Virus record (IMG/VR): IMGVR_UViG_2617270975_000005 | Source of the DNA: a virus | Lineage: Duplodnaviria; Heunggongvirae; Uroviricota; Caudoviricetes | Length of the DNA: 12,420 nt | Strand: one strand, 5' to 3' | Part shown: positions 1 through 12,420 of the stretch, in pieces | How positions within the stretch are numbered: the stretch's first letter is position 1 | Layout of the letters: the number at the start of each line of letters is the position of its first letter | Program-made: the position numbers and the translations under genes | Notes under the pieces: model-generated | What the model was told of the DNA's origin: nothing | Seen by the model: only the letters and a program-made list of their open reading frames with translations | The model's database searches: none

Positions 1-35
1 GATTTAGTGTATGATGGTGTTTTTGAGGTGCTCCA

Positions 36-311
36 GTGGCTTCTGTTTCTATCAGCTGTCCCTCCTGTTCAGCTACTGACGGGGTGGTGCGTAACGGCAA
101 AAGCACCGCCGGACATCAGCGCTATCTCTGCTCTCACTGCCGTAAAACATGGCAACTGCAGTTCACTTACACCGCTTCTCAACCCGGTACGCACCAGAAA
201 ATCATTGATATGGCCATGAATGGCGTTGGATGCCGGGCAACAGCCCGCATTATGGGCGTTGGCCTCAACACGATTTTACGTCACTTAAAAAACTCAGGCC
301 GCAGTCGGTAA
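36..311 (+). CDS. insA: IS1 InsA (small DNA-binding transposition inhibitor, N-terminal Cys-rich zinc-finger-like region), GTG start
   Basis: 91-aa [25 protein letters not shown]...LKNSGRSR matches InsA as I recall it, with a C-x2-C...C-x2-C motif. Start codon is GTG at 36. Confidence 0.93.
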
Positions 312-733
312 CCTCGCGCATACAGCCGGGCAGTGACGTCATCGTCTGCGCGGAAATGGACGAACAGTGGGGATACGTCGGGGCTAAATCGCGCCAGCGC
401 TGGCTGTTTTACGCGTATGACAGGCTCCGGAAGACGGTTGTTGCGCACGTATTCGGTGAACGCACTATGGCGACGCTGGGGCGTCTTATGAGCCTGCTGT
501 CACCCTTTGACGTGGTGATATGGATGACGGATGGCTGGCCGCTGTATGAATCCCGCCTGAAGGGAAAGCTGCACGTAATCAGCAAGCGATATACGCAGCG
601 AATTGAGCGGCATAACCTGAATCTGAGGCAGCACCTGGCACGGCTGGGACGGAAGTCGCTGTCGTTCTCAAAATCGGTGGAGCTGCATGACAAAGTCATC
701 GGGCATTATCTGAACATAAAACACTATCAATAA
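230..733 (+). CDS. insB: IS1 InsB reading frame; expected to be expressed mainly as the InsAB' transposase fusion by -1 frameshifting from insA
   Basis: 167-aa [19 protein letters not shown]...HYLNIKHYQ matches InsB as I recall it. It overlaps the insA 3' end in the -1 frame. Confidence 0.9.
287..293 (+). other. A6C slippery heptamer (AAAAAAC) for programmed -1 ribosomal frameshift, insA to insB
   Basis: AAAAAAC lies in the insA frame (codons TTA AAA AAC) inside the insA/insB overlap, just upstream of the insA stop at 309-311. This is the position described for IS1 frameshifting. Confidence 0.8.
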
Positions 734-750
734 GTTGGAGTCATTACCTA

Positions 751-776
751 GCCTCGCATTCGCGGGGCTTTTTATT
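751..776 (+). terminator. Rho-independent terminator-like hairpin directly after the IS1 right end
   Basis: GCCTCGC-ATTC-GCGGGGC forms a 7-bp GC-rich stem (one G-U pair) with a 4-nt loop, followed by TTTTTATT. The T-tract is only on the plus strand. Confidence 0.5.
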
Positions 777-1067
777 GCCATTACAAAAGCCACTTCCTAC
801 AGAGTGGCTTTGATAATGGTTTATACCCTACACGGGATAACTTAACTGATATCCCTTTTAAAGGATAAAGGTATTCAAGCCTGACACATCATGCGCTGTA
901 TCGTCGCCGTATTCCCGTATTAACAGAGACCGTAGCCCGACGGGGAACTCCTTCTGCGCGAGTGTGCGGGAATAATCAAAAACGATGCACACCGGGGTTA
1001 CCGGGTACACATATTTCATCATGCCAGCGAGTCCGGTTCTGGCACGGAAGAAACCGGACGTTATGAT

Positions 1068-1478
1068 TTAGTGCGGAAATATTTGTGTAGTGTTCTGAAT
1101 GTTCTCAGTAAAGAGTAATGAATTATCAAAGGTATAGTAATACCTTTTGTTTTCGTGGATATTTGTAATCCATCTGAAAACCCCTGCTGTAGCAAGATTT
1201 TTCCTGTATTCGTAAAATGATAACTCTCCTGATTTGAATCCTTTTAAGGTGGCTTCTATAAGGCATTTATTTTTTGAAAATCTTACATTTACAACCTTAC
1301 CCTGTCCTTTTATTAAAACCGTATTATCGTTTTCAAGAACAAGATGAATATTCTCTGTAGCTAAATAGTAAATGTAATGTGAGACATTGTGACGTTTTAG
1401 TTCAGAATAAAACCAGTGATAGTTTAAATTATTTCGCACTTTATCGAATATTTGTTTAAAAATGGCAACCTGAGCCAT
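1068..1478 (-). CDS. Hypothetical prophage accessory (moron) protein, 136 aa, AT-rich; possibly a YbcV/DUF1398-like protein (identity unverified)
   Basis: Six-frame ORF 1068-1493 on the minus strand. I place the start at the second in-frame ATG (1478) because GGAAGG lies 7 nt upstream, whereas the first ATG (1493) has no Shine-Dalgarno. G+C is about 30% by hand count, against more than 50% in the flanking phage genes. It is co-oriented with the upstream 77-aa ORF, about 55 bp apart. Confidence 0.6.
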
Positions 1479-1534
1479 TGTAGTACCTTCCATGTGATAT
1501 GAGGGGCGTAGTCTGCACGATTATCTAAATTGCT

Positions 1535-1768
1535 TCAATCTGGTCTGATCTGTTTTCTGAGCAATTCAGTAATGTCACTCTTTTCTTTGTTTGCTTCAGG
1601 AGAAACTCTTTTTTCTGAGCACAGTCTCCGGCGGCAGGCTTCAATGACCCAGGCTGAGAAATTCCCGGACCCTTTTTGATCAAGAGCGATGTTAATTTGT
1701 TCAATCATTTGGTTAGGAAAGCGGATGTTGCGGATTGTTGTTCTGCGGGTTCTGTTCTTCGTTGACAT
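1535..1768 (-). CDS. Small basic protein, 77 aa, with probable ribbon-helix-helix-type DNA-binding N-terminus; possibly YlcI/DUF3950-like (identity unverified)
   Basis: ORF MSTKNRTRRTTIRNIRFPNQMIEQINIALDQKGSGNFSAWVIEACRRRL... has a basic N-terminus and a strand/helix pattern that suggests an RHH fold. GGGA lies about 8 nt upstream of the ATG. It sits immediately left of cos, divergent from nu1. Confidence 0.6.
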   Translation of the reverse strand: MSTKNRTRRTTIRNIRFPNQMIEQINIALDQKGSGNFSAWVIEACRRRLCSEKRVSPEANKEKSDITELLRKQIRPD

Positions 1769-1934
1769 GAGGTTGTCCCGTATTTAGTGTCGCTGATTTG
1801 TATTGTCTGAAGTTGTTTTTACGTTAAGTTGATGCAGATCAATTAATATGATACCTGCGTCATAATTGATTATTTGACGTGGTTTGATGGCGTAGATGCA
1901 CGTTGTGACATGCAGATGATAATTATTATCATTT

Positions 1935-2140
1935 TGCGGGTCCTTTCCGGCGATCCGACAGGTTACGGGGCGGCGACCTCGCGGGTTTTCGCTATTTATG
2001 AAAATTTTCCGGTTTAAGGTGTTTCCGTTCTTCTTCGTCGTAACTTAATGTTTTTATTTAAAATACCCCCTGAAAAGAAAGGAAACGACAGGTGCTGAAA
2101 GCGAGCTTTTTGGCCTCTGTCGTTTCCTTTCTCTGTTTTT
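1935..2140 (+). promoter_or_regulatory. cos: Phage cos site (cosQ - cosN - cosB): terminase recognition and cutting region
   Basis: Contains ...ATCCGACAGGTTACG|GGGCGGCGACCTCGCGGGTTTTCGCTATTTATG..., the lambda right-end/left-end junction as I recall it. Followed by three GTTTCC-type repeats at about 2020-2035, 2075-2090 (inverted) and 2118-2133, which I read as R3, R2 and R1, with an A/T-rich stretch between R3 and R2 in the position of the IHF site. nu1 starts 189 bp after the cohesive-end start. Confidence 0.9.
1968..1979 (+). other. cosN: cosN 12-nt cohesive-end sequence GGGCGGCGACCT (staggered nick region)
   Basis: Exact 12-mer that I recognise as the lambda cohesive end, preceded by GGTTACG. 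Confidence 0.88.
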
Positions 2141-2156
2141 GTCCGTGGAATGAACA

Positions 2157-2676
2157 ATGGAAGTCAACAAAAAGCAGCTGGCTGACATTTTCGGTGCGAG
2201 TATCCGTACCATTCAGAACTGGCAGGAACAGGGAATGCCCGTTCTGCGAGGCGGTGGCAAGGGTAATGAGGTGCTTTATGACTCTGCCGCCGTCATAAAA
2301 TGGTATGCCAAAAGGGATGCTGAAATTGAGAACGAAAAGCTGCGCCGGGAGGTTGAAGAACTGCGGCAGGCCAGCGAGGCAGATCTCCAGCCAGGGACTA
2401 TTGAGTACGAACGCCATCGACTTACGCGTGCGCAGGCCGACGCACAGGAACTGAAGAATGCCAGAGACTCCGCTGAAGTGGTGGAAACCGCATTCTGTAC
2501 TTTCGTGCTGTCGCGGATCGCAGGTGAAATTGCCAGTATTCTCGACGGGATCCCCCTGTCGGTGCAGCGGCGTTTTCCGGAACTGGAAAACCGACATGTT
2601 GATTTCCTGAAACGGGATATCATCAAAGCCATGAACAAAGCAGCCGCGCTGGATGAACTGATACCGGGGTTGCTGA

Positions 2677-2702
<26 letters not shown>
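2157..2702 (+). CDS. nu1: Terminase small subunit (cosB-binding, winged-HTH N-terminus)
   Basis: 181-aa ORF MEVNKKQLADIFGASIRTIQNWQEQGMPVLRGGGKG... is near-identical to lambda Nu1 as I recall it. Correct distance from cos; 3' end overlaps the A start by 26 nt. Confidence 0.97.
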
Positions 2703-6383
<3,681 letters not shown>

Positions 6384-6403
<20 letters not shown>

Positions 6404-7703
6404 TCTCCCGCATATTGCCAGTATGGCCTTTAATGAGCCGCTGATGCTTGAACCCGCCTATGCGCGGGTTTTCTTTTGTGCGCTTGCAGGCCAGCTTGGG
6501 ATCAGCCGCCTGACGGATGCGGTGTCCGGCGACAGCCTGACTGCCGGAGAGGCACCCGCGGCGCTGGCGTTATCCGTTGATGATGACGGACCACGACAGG
6601 CCCGCAGTTATCAGGTCATGAACGGCATCGCCGTGCTGCCGGTGTCCGGCACGCTGGTCAGCCGGACGCGGGCGCTGCAGCCGTATTCGGGGATGACCGG
6701 TTACAACGGCATTATCGCCCGTCTGCAACAGGCTGCCAGCGATCCGATGGTGGACGGCATTCTGCTGGATATGGACACACCGGGCGGGATGGTGGCGGGA
6801 GCATTTGACTGTGCTGACATCATCGCCCGTGTGCGAGACATAAAACCGGTATGGGCGCTGGCCAACGACATGAACTGCAGTGCAGGTCAGCTGCTTGCCA
6901 GCGCCGCCTCCCGGCGTCTGGTCACGCAGACCGCCCGGACAGGCTCCATCGGCGTCATGATGGCTCACAGTAATTACGGTGCTGCGCTGGAGAAACAGGG
7001 CGTGGAAATCACGCTGATTTACAGCGGCAGCCATAAGGTGGATGGCAACCCCTACAGCCATCTACCGGATGATGTCCGGGAAACACTGCAGTCCCGGATG
7101 GATGCAACCCGCCGGATGTTTGCACAGAAGGTGTCGGCATATACCGGCCTGTCCGTGCAGGCTGTGCTGGATACCGAGGCTGCAGTGTACAGCGGTCAGG
7201 AGGCCATTGATGCCGGACTGGCTGATGAACTTGTGAACAGTACCGATGCGATCACCGTCATGCGTGATGCACTGGATGCACGTAAATCCCGTCTCTCAGG
7301 AGGGCGAATGACCAAAGAGACTCAATCAACAACTGTTTCAGCCACTGCTTCGCAGGCTGACGTTACTGGCGTGGTGCAAGCGACGGAGGGCGAGAACGCC
7401 AGCGCTGCGCAGCCGGACGTGAACGCGCAGATCACCGCAGCGGTTGCGGCAGAAAACAGTCGCATTATGGGGATCCTCAACTGTGAGGAGGCTCACGGAC
7501 GCGAAGAACAGGCATGCGTGCTGGCCGAAACCCCCGGTATGACCGTGGAAACGGCCCGCCGTATTCTGGCCGCAGCACCACAGAGTGCACAGGCGCGCAG
7601 TGACACTGCGCTGGATCGTCTGATGCAGGGGGCACCGGCACCGCTGGCTGCAGGTAACCCGGCATCTGATGCCGTTAACGATTTGCTGAACACACCAGTG
7701 TAA
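6384..7703 (+). CDS. C: Prohead protease / minor capsid protein C (S49 ClpP-like family), GTG start
   Basis: The six-frame ORF starts at 6249, but the lambda-like protein begins VTAELRNLPHIASMAFNEPLM at GTG 6384, preceded by GAGGAGGAG. That start gives 439 aa, the lambda gpC length, and overlaps the B 3' end by 20 nt. Confidence 0.93.
7098..7703 (+). CDS. nu3: Scaffolding protein Nu3, nested in-frame in the 3' third of C (shared stop)
   Basis: In-frame ATG at 7098 gives MDATRRMFAQKVSAYTGLSVQ..., 201 aa, matching lambda Nu3 and its nested arrangement. Confidence 0.85.
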   Translation: MDATRRMFAQKVSAYTGLSVQAVLDTEAAVYSGQEAIDAGLADELVNSTDAITVMRDALDARKSRLSGGRMTKETQSTTVSATASQADVTGVVQATEGENASAAQPDVNAQITAAVAAENSRIMGILNCEEAHGREEQACVLAETPGMTVETARRILAAAPQSAQARSDTALDRLMQGAPAPLAAGNPASDAVNDLLNTPV

Positions 7704-7712
7704 GGGATGTTT

Positions 7713-8045
7713 ATGACGAGCAAAGAAACCTTTACCCATTACCAGCCGCTGGGCAACAGTGACCCGGCACATACGGCAACCGCGCCCGGCGGATTGAGTG
7801 CGAAAGCGCCTGCAATGACCCCGCTGATGCTGGATACCTCCACCCGTAAGCTGGTTGCGTGGGATGGCACCACCGACGGTGCTGCCGTTGGCATTCTGGC
7901 GGTTGATGCTGACCAGACCAGCACCACGCTGACGTTCTACAAGTCCGGCACGTTCCGTTATGAGGATGTGCTCTGGCCGGAGGCTGCCAGCGACGAGACG
8001 AAAAAACGGACCGCGTTTGCCGGAACGGCAATCAGCATCGTTTAA
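7713..8045 (+). CDS. D: Head decoration protein D
   Basis: [43 protein letters not shown]...; 110 aa from ATG 7713 with AAGGGA upstream. The ORF track begins two codons earlier at 7707. Matches lambda gpD. Confidence 0.95.
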
Positions 8046-8063
8046 CTTTACCCTTCATCACTA

Positions 8064-8087
8064 AAGGCCGCCTGTGCGGCTTTTTTT
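8064..8087 (+). terminator. Stem-loop with T-tract in the D-E intergenic region (intrinsic terminator-like or RNA-stability/processing element)
   Basis: AAGCCGC-CTGT-GCGGCTT followed by TTTTTTT: a 5-bp G/C stem extended by A-T pairs, 4-nt loop, U-run, lying between the D stop (8045) and the E start (8101). Confidence 0.5.
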
Positions 8088-8100
8088 ACGGGATTTTTTT

Positions 8101-9126
8101 ATGTCGATGTACACAACCGCCCAGCTGCTGGCGGCAAATGAGCAGAAATTTAAGTTTGATCCGCTGTTTCTGCGTCTCTTTTTCCGTGAGAGCTATCCCT
8201 TCACTACGGAGAAAGTCTATCTCTCACAAATTCCGGGACTGGTAAACATGGCGCTGTACGTTTCGCCGATTGTTTCCGGTGAGGTTATCCGTTCCCGTGG
8301 CGGCTCCACCTCTGAATTTACGCCGGGATATGTCAAACCCAAGCATGAAGTGAATCCGCAGATGACCCTGCGTCGCCTGCCGGATGAAGATCCGCAGAAT
8401 CTGGCGGACCCGGCTTACCGCCGCCGTCGCATCATCCTGCAGAACATGCGTGACGAAGAGCTGGCCATTGCTCAGGTCGAAGAGATGCAGGCAGTTTCTG
8501 CCGTGCTCAAGGGCAAATACACCATGACCGGTGAAGCCTTCGATCCGGTTGAGGTGGATATGGGCCGCAGTGCGGCGAACAACATCACGCAGTCCGGCGG
8601 CACGGAGTGGAGCAAGCGTGACAAGTCCACGTATGACCCGACCGACGATATCGAAGCCTACGCGCTGAACGCCAGCGGAGTGGTGAATATCATCGTGTTT
8701 GATCCGAAAGGCTGGGCGCTGTTCCGTTCCTTCAAAGCCGTCAAGGAGAAGCTGGATACCCGTCGCGGCTCTCATTCCGAGCTGGAGACAGCGGTGAAAG
8801 ACCTGGGTAAAGCGGTGTCCTATAAGGGGATGTATGGCGATGTGGCCATCGTCGTGTATTCCGGACAGTACGTGGAAAACGGCGTCAAAAAGAACTTCCT
8901 GCCGGACAACACGATGGTGCTGGGTAACACTCATGCACGCGGTCTGCGCACCTATGGCTGTATTCAGGATGCGGATGCATTGAGTGAGGGTATTAATGCG
9001 TCTCCCCGTTATCCGAAAAACTGGAAGACATCCGGCGATCCGGCGCGAGAGTTCACCATGATTCAGTCAGCACCGCTGATGCTGCTGGCTGATCCTGATG
9101 AGTTCGTGTCCGTTCAACTGGCGTAA
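8101..9126 (+). CDS. E: Major capsid protein E
   Basis: MSMYTTAQLLAANEQKFKFDPLFLRLFFRESYPFTTEKVYLSQIPGL...; 341 aa from ATG 8101, the lambda gpE length. The ORF-track start at 8074 is a GTG inside the upstream hairpin and is rejected. Confidence 0.96.
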   Translation: MSMYTTAQLLAANEQKFKFDPLFLRLFFRESYPFTTEKVYLSQIPGLVNMALYVSPIVSGEVIRSRGGSTSEFTPGYVKPKHEVNPQMTLRRLPDEDPQNLADPAYRRRRIILQNMRDEELAIAQVEEMQAVSAVLKGKYTMTGEAFDPVEVDMGRSAANNITQSGGTEWSKRDKSTYDPTDDIEAYALNASGVVNIIVFDPKGWALFRSFKAVKEKLDTRRGSHSELETAVKDLGKAVSYKGMYGDVAIVVYSGQYVENGVKKNFLPDNTMVLGNTHARGLRTYGCIQDADALSEGINASPRYPKNWKTSGDPAREFTMIQSAPLMLLADPDEFVSVQLA

Positions 9127-9167
9127 TCATGGCCCTTCGGGGCCATTGTTTCTCTGTGGAGGAGTCC

Positions 9168-9563
9168 ATGACGAAAGATGAACTGATTGCCCGTCTCCGC
9201 TCGCTGGGTGAACAACTGAACCGTGATATCAGCCTGACGGGGACGAAAGAAGAACTGGCGCTCCGTGTGGCAGAGCTGGAAGAAGAGCTTGATGACACGG
9301 GCGACACTGCCGATCAGGATACCCCTCTCAGCCCGGAAAATGTGCTGACCGGACATGAAAATGAGGTTGTATCAGCGCAGCCGGATACCGTGACTGATAC
9401 GGCTGATCTGGTCACGGTTGTGGCACTGGTGACGCTGCATACTGATGCACTTCACGCCACGCGGGATGAGGCTGTGGCATTTGTGCTGCCGGGAACGGCG
9501 TTCCGTGTCTCTGCCGGTGTGGCAGCTGAAATGACAGAGCGCGGCCTGGCCAGAATGCAATAA
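9168..9563 (+). CDS. FI: DNA packaging / head assembly protein FI
   Basis: MTKDELIARLRSLGEQLNRD... from ATG 9168 with GGAGGAG upstream; 131 aa. Lambda-like, but with clustered substitutions and one codon fewer than the lambda FI I recall. Confidence 0.9.
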   Translation: MTKDELIARLRSLGEQLNRDISLTGTKEELALRVAELEEELDDTGDTADQDTPLSPENVLTGHENEVVSAQPDTVTDTADLVTVVALVTLHTDALHATRDEAVAFVLPGTAFRVSAGVAAEMTERGLARMQ

Positions 9564-9574
9564 CGGGAGGCGCT

Positions 9575-9928
9575 GTGGCTGATTTCGATAACCTGTTCGA
9601 TGCTGCCATTGCCTGCGCCGATGAAACGATACGCGGGTACATGGGAACGTCAGCCACCATGACATCCGGTGAGCAGTCCGGTGCTGTGATACGTGGTGTT
9701 TTTGATGACCCTGAAAATATCAGCTATGCCGGACAGGGCGTGCGCGTTGAAGGCTCCAGCCCGTCCCTGTTTGTCCGGACTGATGATGTGCGGCAGCTGC
9801 GGCGCGGCGACACGCTGACCATCGGTGAGGAAAACTTCTGGATAGACCGGATTTCGCCGGATGATGGCGGAAGCTGTCATCTCTGGCTTGGGCGGGGCGT
9901 ACCGCCTGCCGTTAACCGTCGCCGCTGA
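9575..9928 (+). CDS. FII: Head-tail connector / head completion protein FII (GTG start)
   Basis: 117-aa ORF MADFDNLFDAAIACADETIRGYMGTSATMTSGEQSG... matches lambda gpFII. Start-codon identity (GTG) is inferred from lambda; my hand count of that line was off by one, so I rely on the ORF-track coordinate. Confidence 0.95.
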   Translation: MADFDNLFDAAIACADETIRGYMGTSATMTSGEQSGAVIRGVFDDPENISYAGQGVRVEGSSPSLFVRTDDVRQLRRGDTLTIGEENFWIDRISPDDGGSCHLWLGRGVPPAVNRRR

Positions 9929-9939
9929 AAGGGGGATGT

Positions 9940-10518
9940 ATGGCCATAAAAGGTCTTGAGCAGGCCGTTGAAAACCTCAGCCGTATCAGCAGAACGGCGG
10001 TGCCCGGTGCCGCCGCAATGGCCATTAACCGCGTTGCTTCATCCGCGATATCGCAGTCGGTGGCACAGGTTGCCCGTGAGACAAAGGTACGCCGGAAACT
10101 GGTAAAGGAAAGGGCCAGGCTGAAAAGGGCCACGGTCAAAAATCCGCAGGCCAGAATCAGGGTTAATCGGGGGGATTTGCCCGTAATCAAGCTGGGTAAC
10201 GCGCGGGTTGTCCTTTCCCGCCGCAGACGTCGTAAAAAGGGGCAGCGTTCATCCCTGAAAGGTGGCGGCAGCGTGCTTGTGGTGGGAAACCGTCGTATTC
10301 CCGGCGCGTTTATTCAGCAACTGAAAAATGGCCGGTGGCATGTCATGCAGCGTGTGGCCGGGAAAAACCGTTACCCCATTGATGTGGTGAAAATCCCGAT
10401 GGCGGTGCCGCTTACCACGGCGTTTAAACAGAATATTGAACGGATACGGCGTGAACGTCTTCCGAAAGAGCTGGGCTATGCGCTGCAGCATCAACTGAGA
10501 ATGGTAATAAAGCGATGA
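9940..10518 (+). CDS. Z: Tail completion / minor tail protein Z
   Basis: 192-aa ORF MAIKGLEQAVENLSRISRTAVPGAAAMAINRV... matches lambda gpZ in length and sequence. Confidence 0.95.
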   Translation: MAIKGLEQAVENLSRISRTAVPGAAAMAINRVASSAISQSVAQVARETKVRRKLVKERARLKRATVKNPQARIRVNRGDLPVIKLGNARVVLSRRRRRKKGQRSSLKGGGSVLVVGNRRIPGAFIQQLKNGRWHVMQRVAGKNRYPIDVVKIPMAVPLTTAFKQNIERIRRERLPKELGYALQHQLRMVIKR

Positions 10519-10910
10519 AACATACTGAACTCCGTGCAGCCGTACTGGATGCACTGGAGAAGCATGACACCGGGGCGACGCTTTTTGATGGTCGCCCCGC
10601 TGTTTTTGATGAGGCGGATTTTCCGGCAGTTGCCGTTTATCTCACCGGCGCTGAATACACGGGCGAAGAGCTGGACAGCGATACCTGGCAGGCGGAGCTG
10701 CATATCGAAGTTTTCCTGCCTGCTCAGGTGCCGGATTCAGAGCTGGATGCGTGGATGGAGTCCCGGATTTATCCGGTGATGAGCGATATCCCGGCACTGT
10801 CAGATTTGATCACCAGTATGGTGGCCAGCGGCTATGACTACCGGCGCGACGATGATGCGGGCCTGTGGAGTTCAGCCGATCTGACTTATGTCATTACCTA
10901 TGAAATGTGA
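10515..10910 (+). CDS. U: Tail terminator protein U
   Basis: 131-aa [48 protein letters not shown]... matches lambda gpU. ATGA overlap with the Z stop. Confidence 0.95.
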
Positions 10911-10917
10911 GGACGCT

Positions 10918-11049
10918 ATGCCTGTACCAAATCCTACAATGCCGGTGAAAGGTGCCGGGACCACCCTGTGGGTTTATAAGGGGAGCGGTGACCCTTATGC
11001 GAATCCGCTTTCAGACGTTGACTGGTCGCGTCTGGCAAAAGTTAAGTAA
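10918..11049 (+). pseudogene. V: Major tail tube protein V, 5' fragment (43 codons) cut by an IS66-family insertion
   Basis: [43 protein letters not shown] matches the lambda gpV N-terminus, which is about 246 aa. It then runs into a stop supplied by the IS terminus (GTAA); downstream sequence is IS66-family, not V. Confidence 0.88.
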
Positions 11050-11098
11050 CCGGCTCATTTAAACCGTCTGGTCTGTTTCCTCCGGCTCTACAAAAATA

Positions 11099-11776
11099 AT
11101 GTCCATCATTTTTAATGGACACTATCGTATGAAACACCGGACCTGGATCACTGAAGCTTTACGTCTTCACTTTGAAGAACATTTACCCCGGGTTGTGGCC
11201 GGGCGTCGCCTGGGTGTACCAAAATCAACAGTTTGTAGTATGTTCGTGCGCTTTCGGAGAGCTGGCCTTTCGTGGCCTTTGCCCGCAGGCATGTCGGAGC
11301 AGGAACTTGATGCCTGCCTTTACGGACAATTTTCCACGGTACCAGTCGTACGTCCTGAAAGCACCGTTATATCCGAAGCCCCCGTGGTAAAAAAACGTCC
11401 CCGGCGGCCCAACTTCCCTTATGAGTTTAAAATCGCCTTAGTGGAGCAGTCACTGCAGCCCGGAGCCTGTGTGGCGCAGATCGCCCGGGAAAACGGAATC
11501 AACGATAACCTGCTCTTCAACTGGCGCCATCAATACCGGAAAGGTGGCCTGCTGCCTTCCGGAAAAAATATGCCGGCACTGCTTCCCGTGACGTTAACGC
11601 CGGAGCCGGATAATAAAATCCCGGCCCCCGCACAGGAACCAGAGCAGATAAATACACCGTCCGACAGTCTGTGTTGTGAGCTGGTTCTGCCGGCCGGAAC
11701 TCTCAGGCTTAAAGGTAAACTGACGCCGGCGTTATTACAGACACTTATCCGCGAAATAAAAGGGAGCAGCCACTGA
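11099..11776 (+). CDS. tnpA: IS66-family orf1 (TnpA-like accessory HTH protein); start uncertain (ATG 11099 or ATG 11129)
   Basis: The C-terminal part ...RRPNFPYEFKIALVEQSLQPGACVAQIARENGINDNLLFNWRHQYRKGG... has the HTH motif typical of IS66 Orf1 and IS3 OrfA proteins. Its stop overlaps the orf2 start (TGATG). Neither candidate start has a strong Shine-Dalgarno. Confidence 0.8.
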   Translation: MSIIFNGHYRMKHRTWITEALRLHFEEHLPRVVAGRRLGVPKSTVCSMFVRFRRAGLSWPLPAGMSEQELDACLYGQFSTVPVVRPESTVISEAPVVKKRPRRPNFPYEFKIALVEQSLQPGACVAQIARENGINDNLLFNWRHQYRKGGLLPSGKNMPALLPVTLTPEPDNKIPAPAQEPEQINTPSDSLCCELVLPAGTLRLKGKLTPALLQTLIREIKGSSH

Positions 11777-12123
11777 TGATATCTCTCCCTGCAGGTTCGC
11801 GTATCTGGCTGGTTGCAGGTATCACCGATATGCGAAATGGCTTTAACGGCCTGGCATCAAAAGTTCAGAACGTCCTGAAGGATGACCCGTTCTCCGGACA
11901 CCTGTTCATCTTCCGCGGACGCCGGGGTGACCAGATAAAAGTGTTGTGGGCTGACAGTGACGGACTGTGCCTCTTCACCAAACGCCTGGAGCGGGGCCGC
12001 TTCGTCTGGCCAGTCACCCGTGACGGCAAGGTGCACCTTACTCCGGCTCAGTTATCCATGCTTCTTGAAGGTATCAACTGGAAGCACCCGAAACGAACGG
12101 AACGCGCTGGAATCCGCATATAA
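11776..12123 (+). CDS. tnpB: IS66-family orf2 (TnpB accessory protein)
   Basis: 115-aa ORF MISLPAGSRIWLVAGITDMRNGFNGLASKVQNVLKDDPFSGHLFIFRGRRGDQIKVLWADSDGLCLFTKRLERGRFVWP... is the conserved IS66 Orf2 family pattern. Confidence 0.9.
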   Translation: MISLPAGSRIWLVAGITDMRNGFNGLASKVQNVLKDDPFSGHLFIFRGRRGDQIKVLWADSDGLCLFTKRLERGRFVWPVTRDGKVHLTPAQLSMLLEGINWKHPKRTERAGIRI

Positions 12124-12142
12124 CCCGTTGTAAAGTGAGGAT

Positions 12143-12420
12143 ATGGACACCTCACTTGCTCATGAGAACGCCCGCCTGCGGGCACTGTTGCAGACGCAAC
12201 AGGACACCATCCGCCAGATGGCTGAATACAACCGCCTGCTCTCACAGCGGGTGGCGGCTTATGCTTCCGAAATCAACCGGCTGAAGGCGCTGGTTGCGAA
12301 ACTGCAACGTATGCAGTTCGGTAAAAGCTCAGAAAAACTTCGTGCAAAAACCGAACGGCAGATACAGGAAGCACAGGAGCGAATCAGCGCACTTCAGGAA
12401 GAAATGGCGGAAACGCTGGG
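12143..12420 (+). CDS. tnpC: IS66-family transposase TnpC, N-terminal ~92 codons (3' end outside window)
   Basis: MDTSLAHENARLRALLQTQQDTIRQMAEYNRLLSQRVAAYASEINRLKALVAKLQRMQFGKSSEKLRAKTERQIQEAQERISALQEEMAETL: heptad-like Leu/Ala-rich N-terminus typical of IS66 transposases. GAGG lies just upstream. The ORF is open to the window end. Confidence 0.85.
   Translation, partial: MDTSLAHENARLRALLQTQQDTIRQMAEYNRLLSQRVAAYASEINRLKALVAKLQRMQFGKSSEKLRAKTERQIQEAQERISALQEEMAETL

Follow-up and report, generated by a model that had tools for sequence, protein, structure and literature searches.

The window analysed here is the entire 12,420-bp contig JNQZ01000078.1 of the draft assembly GCA_000704425.1. It begins within an IS1 insertion sequence (1–748, plus strand), followed immediately by two hairpins, two minus-strand moron genes, the cos site and the head and tail genes of a prophage, and it ends within an IS66-family element that splits the last of these genes. 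From position 892 to 11045, which amounts to 81% of the window, the sequence is 96.8% identical to phage lambda and 97–98% identical to its closest phage relatives. The host prophage appears to be a lambda-like one of the DLP12 type, as suggested by relatives with quuD-ompC-essD-rrrD-Rz.

The cosN cohesive-end sequence GGGCGGCGACCT, a 12-nt string that we take to be the lambda cohesive end (lambda left end), is found at 1968–1979 on the plus strand, within a region 99% identical to lambda-like phages. Past cos the genes follow the lambda-type layout, starting with nu1 (2157–2702, plus strand; Pfam Phage_Nu1), which encodes the small subunit of terminase and is the first gene of the head operon, and continuing with A, W, B, C, D, E, FI, FII, Z, U and a truncated V. 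Directly upstream of nu1 there is a long hairpin of the lambda type, followed by TCTGTTTTTG (2076–2132, plus strand), with a folding energy of -33.2 kcal/mol and a z-score of -4.6, which is conserved in deposited lambda-like phages. This structure, located between cos and nu1 on the strand of the late transcript, is nearly perfect, with 17 pairs plus an inner stem. An Rfam scan of positions 1–2800, with E-values up to 1, returned only two chance hits to miRNA models, both on this same hairpin.

Between IS1 and cos, the minus strand carries a DUF1398 (YdfO-like) moron gene at 1068–1478 (Pfam PF07166) and a YlcI/YnfO-family (DUF3950) gene at 1535–1768 (Pfam PF13132), both of them annotated in relatives. 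In phage Kati the corresponding segment runs in the order Q, a minus-strand gene, holin, endolysin, Rz, small ORFs, hairpin, minus-strand genes and nu1. An earlier note on this DNA had placed the IS1 upstream of cos, in the interval between the lysis genes and cos. The position of cos and the synteny of the right flank with relatives bear this out for the right-hand side of the element; the left flank we can only infer.

At the other end of the window, an ISCro1-like element of the IS66 family (11046–12420, plus strand), with tnpA and tnpB annotated in relatives, interrupts the tail gene V after position 11045, as located by the breakpoint relative to phage Kati, and runs off the contig end. 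Because V is split at 11045/11046, the prophage is defective.

The IS1 copy and the limits of the contig

The IS1 sequence in the window corresponds to element positions 21–768, its first 20 bp being cut off, together with the left flank, at the contig start. The earlier note had described a 768-bp IS1; its identity stands, with more than 99% identity to annotated copies (6 mismatches in 748 positions relative to the copy in strain ET201 and 7 in 748 relative to that in strain 2EC1), and its full length does not, as 748 of the 768 bp are present. Two open frames were translated on the plus strand, insA (36–311, 91 aa) and the insB' frame (230–733, 167 aa), the latter being linked to insA by a -1 frameshift at the A6C motif (285–295) to yield the InsAB' transposase. 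The motif, TTAAAAAACTC, begins at 285. A gene call spanning 36–733 gave a joined product of 232 aa with the Pfam domains Zn_ribbon_InsA, HTH_Tnp_IS1 and DDE_Tnp_IS1 (PF03811, PF12759 and PF03400). The right terminal inverted repeat, ...ATCAATAAGTTGGAGTCATTACC, for which we assume a length of 23 bp, occupies 726–748 on the plus strand and is matched exactly by the right end of IS1 in loci L001 and L002. The right end of the element, ...GTTGGAGTCATTACC, finishes at 748, where the tip of the repeat reads ...GGAGTCATTACC; the left repeat, presumably GGTGATGCTGCC..., would fall outside the contig. In its right repeat, insA, insB' and A6C site, the element is like IS1A/IS1B-type copies of E. coli, with no notable difference, and on this comparison positions 1–748 represent an ordinary and apparently intact IS1 copy. 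The element is oriented with the phage late genes, and a promoter scan of its right end detected no promoter-like site reading outward.

Both ends of the contig are assembly breaks in repeats, the left one within IS1 and the right one within the IS66-family element. As the contig starts at IS1 position 21, the left end of the element, its target duplication and its left flank are out of view, and what IS1 interrupted cannot be claimed from the contig itself, whose edge is a break in a repeat. The internal IS1 sequence at the end of a draft contig may, moreover, combine bases from several copies. In Logan, the independent assembly of run SRR1186741 contains a contig (L004) that is identical to the window over 1928–11074 only, starting just 5' of cos and ending 29 bp into the IS66 element, so the junction between IS1 and the hairpin receives no confirmation from it. 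The region left of cos was treated as repeated in that assembly too. A look-up with the terminase large subunit returned these two contigs, the window itself and L004, of which neither extends leftward beyond IS1.

A conserved hairpin at the end of the lysis module

An intrinsic-terminator-like hairpin with a T tract (hairpin 1; 750–777, plus strand) begins two nucleotides past the IS1 end (748 to 750), in agreement with the earlier description of a strong hairpin plus T tract within 3 bp of the element. It is formed by AGCCTCGC-ATTC-GCGGGGCT (750–769), with arms at 750–757 and 762–769 flanking the loop ATTC and eight pairs, including six G-C and one G-U, and it is followed by the T tract TTTTTATT at 770–777. 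Its free energy was calculated at -13.6 to -14.1 kcal/mol, and the region 740–830 had a folding z-score of -6.8 with respect to shuffled sequences. A scan for terminator patterns was by itself at chance level (3 sites, with 3.1 expected in shuffles); it is because of its conservation in relatives, with constant position, and not because of the scan, that we consider hairpin 1 to be above chance.

This conservation can be followed in genomes in which the site is empty. In strain 2EC1 the site is uninterrupted, ...CAGTCATTACAAATACCAGGATT|TAGCCTCGCATTCGCGGGGCTTTTTATT, and the DNA corresponding to that right of 748 is 99.9% identical to the window; a 50-aa ORF follows the Rz-type lysis gene there, and its stop codon is 33 nt before hairpin 1. 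The uninterrupted site, ...ACCAGGATT|TAGCCTCGCATTCGCGGGGCTTTTTATT, thus has the hairpin 33 nt past the stop of the last small ORF in the lysis cassette. A 120-nt probe for the empty site was covered over at least 80% of its length in 1360 of 5426 complete E. coli genomes, and it also matched the deposited phages Kati, mEp460, Ayreon, PhiR47_1, HK620, CUS-3, Sf101 and epsilon34, which, having been deposited as phage genomes, we take to be plaque-forming, in line with what is generally known of them. The record of Salmonella phage epsilon34 (EU570103, 41071–41094) annotates the homologous 24 nt, downstream of gene 67, as a Rho-independent terminator, an annotation for which the record states no evidence.

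An alignment of nine sources showed hairpin 1 and its T tract to be nearly invariant, the variants seen being a C-to-T change in the loop in epsilon34 and a change of one G-C pair to G-U in phage Huey. A covariation test of the stem was uninformative because the stem is essentially invariant. The epsilon34 terminator and hairpin 1 share the sequence AGCCTCGCATT(C/T)GCGGGGCTTTTT, as do the equivalents in HK620, Sf101, CUS-3, mEp460, Ayreon and Kati, and in all of these phages it has the same position, about 33 nt past the small ORF that follows Rz/Rz1. The window differs from epsilon34 in one loop base and in having IS1 instead of the native DNA up to 1 nt from the stem. In both lambda-like and P22-like phages the terminator is preceded by the conserved 50-aa ORF, which overlaps the end of Rz and corresponds to gene 67 of epsilon34; this ORF is located at 5816–5968 in L002, 1374–1526 in L008 and 1372–1524 in L009, and its translation looks hydrophobic by eye.

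A second hairpin, with the core AAAGCCACT...AGTGGCTTT, occupies 777–820 on the minus strand (-21 to -22 kcal/mol) and is followed on that strand by TTTTGTAA. It is likely the terminator of the minus-strand moron genes, facing hairpin 1, so that the two hairpins would make up a face-to-face terminator pair. The terminator annotated in the Ayreon record corresponds to hairpin 2. The two structures are distributed differently among relatives. Similarity to the P22-like phages HK620, epsilon34 and Huey and to an O104:H4 prophage stops immediately past the T tract of hairpin 1, and prophages with a KilA-N gene upstream match the window only from about 777. Two of the latter kind, in strains WS0115A and ET201, have no hairpin 1; at the site of hairpin 2 they carry a divergent sequence in which the stem can still be folded (AAGCCCA...TGGGCTT). 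The window has a sharp mosaic boundary between phage modules at 770–780. From this boundary and the module-wise conservation, hairpin 1 can be attributed to the lysis module, as its 3' end, and hairpin 2 to the moron module.

As a fallback, the earlier note had suggested that the hairpin could be the native terminator of a gene beside which IS1 had landed. The occurrence of the same hairpin 33 nt past the lysis ORF at the empty sites of 1360 E. coli genomes and of phages, together with the epsilon34 annotation, favors precisely this, and sequence comparison strongly supports that hairpin 1 is the native, terminator-like 3' end of the lysis module and predates IS1. It should consequently be annotated as the conserved lysis-module end of lambda-like and P22-like phages, and not as an IS1-associated structure.

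The probable insertion event and IS1 in related prophages

Similarity to the empty site, which reads ...ACCAGGATT|TAGCCTCGC... in 2EC1, Kati, Ayreon and epsilon34, ends exactly at the last base of IS1. According to this comparison, IS1 would have entered a non-coding spacer, at a point 32 nt past the stop codon of the final small ORF and 1 nt short of the pre-existing hairpin; the site is intergenic in the relatives, and by this criterion the element interrupted no annotated gene. The predicted target duplication, of the 9 bp that are usual for IS1, is the sequence TAGCCTCGC, whose right copy (749–757) overlaps the 5' arm of the hairpin and whose left copy would lie beyond the contig. Since this duplication would copy the 5' arm of the stem, the insertion is predicted to have rebuilt the hairpin to the right of IS1, where it is intact, and to have left a half-stem on the left.

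Searches for the right junction itself gave no exact match for its 35-nt sequence among the GTDB species-representative genomes, and a 121-nt junction query was covered over at least 80% by no record among the 5426 complete E. coli genomes. Its absence from both sets points to a strain-specific event and, as the same insertion turned up in none of the complete genomes, the left flank cannot be recovered in that way.

Other IS1 copies were found in the same interval in other strains. In ET201, an IS1 is inserted at the window-equivalent positions 943–951 with the 9-bp duplication GGGAACTCC, and in strain 10 another is located between gnsB and ydfO of a Qin-like prophage with the 9-bp duplication AATCTGATG. 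In these two strains the element is the same, has the same orientation with respect to the late genes and is found in intergenic AT-rich targets between the lysis/moron genes and ydfO/ynfO/nu1, as in the window; they differ from it in their insertion points (943–951 and after gnsB, respectively) and in that the 9-bp duplications are visible. Recurrence of IS1 at other sites of the interval is as expected from random traffic of insertion sequences in an AT-rich moron region.

The principal alternative to a simple insertion is that IS1 marks the endpoint of a deletion or rearrangement, with an unrelated left flank, in which case the head genes would be physically separated from Q and the late promoter, and the question of the terminator would be moot. 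A case of this kind exists in the same prophage family: in ET734, an IS1 lacking a target duplication (L011, 4110–4877) joins ynfO/cos-proximal DNA (window-equivalent about 1884) directly to cusS. The IS1 located upstream of the prophage remnant in 2EC1 also lacks a duplication, and the contig analysed here ends inside IS1, with its left flank outside. On the other side of the balance, three further IS1 copies were examined in the interval, and two of them are simple insertions with 9-bp duplications; the right junction in the window is clean and falls at an intergenic site, and there is no sign of sequence loss in the window. Because of the ET734 case we still give this explanation about one chance in four. 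The ET734 deletion, bounded by this IS1, removed the entire head and tail region from a sister prophage.

The empty target contains, 14–22 nt upstream of the insertion point, the 9-nt sequence AGTCATTAC, which is identical to the outermost bases of the right end of IS1 (GGAGTCATTACC). It is found at 5981–5989 in L002 and also in Kati, Ayreon, epsilon34 and HK620, and by a rough estimate a match of this kind would be expected by chance in about 1–2% of cases. End-homology in the vicinity of IS1 hotspots appears in old reports.

Expected late transcription across the insertion

IS1 is classically strongly polar in ordinary operons, and r14 in cII is one of the classical IS1 insertions in lambda. 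The main reading of the earlier note was in this line: IS1 and the hairpin would form a polar block before cos and nu1 that, together with the disruption of V, silences the late operon. Several features of the window agree with it, as IS1 is located ahead of nu1 and past the place where the lysis genes are expected, and is oriented with the late genes, hairpin 1 has the shape of a good intrinsic terminator, V is interrupted as well, and IS1 insertions are known for their polarity. In spite of this, we regard such a block as improbable. Hairpin 1 is native in deposited lambda-like and P22-like phages, which have it between the lysis and the packaging genes, and for this reason it is expected to be in the path of the late transcript in the first place. 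A much stronger terminator-like hairpin (2076–2132, about -33 kcal/mol) already precedes nu1 in the window as well as in deposited lambda-like phages, and the presence of IS1 at several other positions of the interval elsewhere argues against a site-specific pairing of the element with a terminator. The silencing to which the V disruption was to contribute finds no support; the split in V by itself suffices to make the prophage defective, whatever IS1 does.

The properties of Q weigh in the same direction, as a Q-loaded polymerase suppresses both termination at hairpins and polarity: Q prevents terminator hairpins from forming, in a processive manner that extends over tens of thousands of nucleotides (PMC9388147), Q-lambda suppresses polarity (PMC12360218), and a 27-gene late transcript requires Q (PMC10695390). 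In a lambdoid late operon a hairpin that looks like a terminator is therefore no sign of silencing, since the late transcript is made under Q antitermination. There is a parallel with r14 and similar insertions in lambda and with the suppression of polarity by lambda Q (Forbes and Herskowitz 1982), in that an insertion sequence stands in a phage unit read by an antiterminated polymerase; the cases differ in that the account given for the window is a prediction from sequence, and in that lambda has Q-lambda whereas the Q upstream in the relatives of the window is QuuD-like.

We therefore favor a reading, to which we assign a probability of roughly 0.78, in which an ordinary IS1 landed beside a native hairpin, generated its target duplication and persists as a near-neutral passenger in a defective prophage. 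Under it, hairpin 1 would stop transcription that is not antiterminated, including any read-out from IS1 and, natively, any leakage from the lysis genes, and by doing so it would insulate the moron genes from antisense transcripts. After induction, an RNA polymerase loaded with Q, coming from the putative late promoter to the left of IS1, would be expected to read through hairpin 1, as the late operon of related phages requires, and Q should also largely suppress Rho-dependent polarity within IS1. IS1 is most likely near-neutral in a prophage that is already defective, although some partial polarity on the late genes is conceivable. None of the parts is new, whether IS1, the lysis-module terminator that the epsilon34 record annotates, or the cos site and late operon of the lambda type, and the finding is real but ordinary, reflecting routine decay of a defective prophage and not a new silencing device; its significance beyond annotation is little.

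A more elaborate proposal would be that IS1 was directed to this site by the hairpin or by AGTCATTAC, and that by rebuilding the terminator through its duplication it became a self-insulating insertion, with the lysis genes cut off from their terminator and read-out from IS1 prevented; we find this very hard to credit. It is also very improbable that the IS1/hairpin junction is a chimeric artefact of the draft genome, absent from the cell, for despite the repeats at both ends of this draft contig and the lack of support from the SRR1186741 contig (1928–11074), similarity is lost precisely at the final base of a canonical IS1 end, as in a transposition product and unlike a mis-join, and the contig continues for 748 bp into IS1 with no irregularity.

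The disruption of V also has counterparts in relatives. The exact V/IS66 junction of the window was present in 0 of the 5426 complete E. coli genomes. A V/IS66 junction common to the window and WS0115A, which would have dated the IS1 insertion as the later event, was considered and rejected, as the junction is in no complete genome and the positions differ. In the relatives the same IS66-family element, with its orientation unchanged, is inserted at other points nearby within the first ~130 nt of V, the start of tnpA lying 122 nt after the stop of U in GZ2408C, 172 nt in WS0115A and 189 nt in the window. By their positions, these look like recurrent independent hits, possibly in a hotspot. In the relatives the element extends over about 15163–17924 in L006 and about 15245–17948 in L007.
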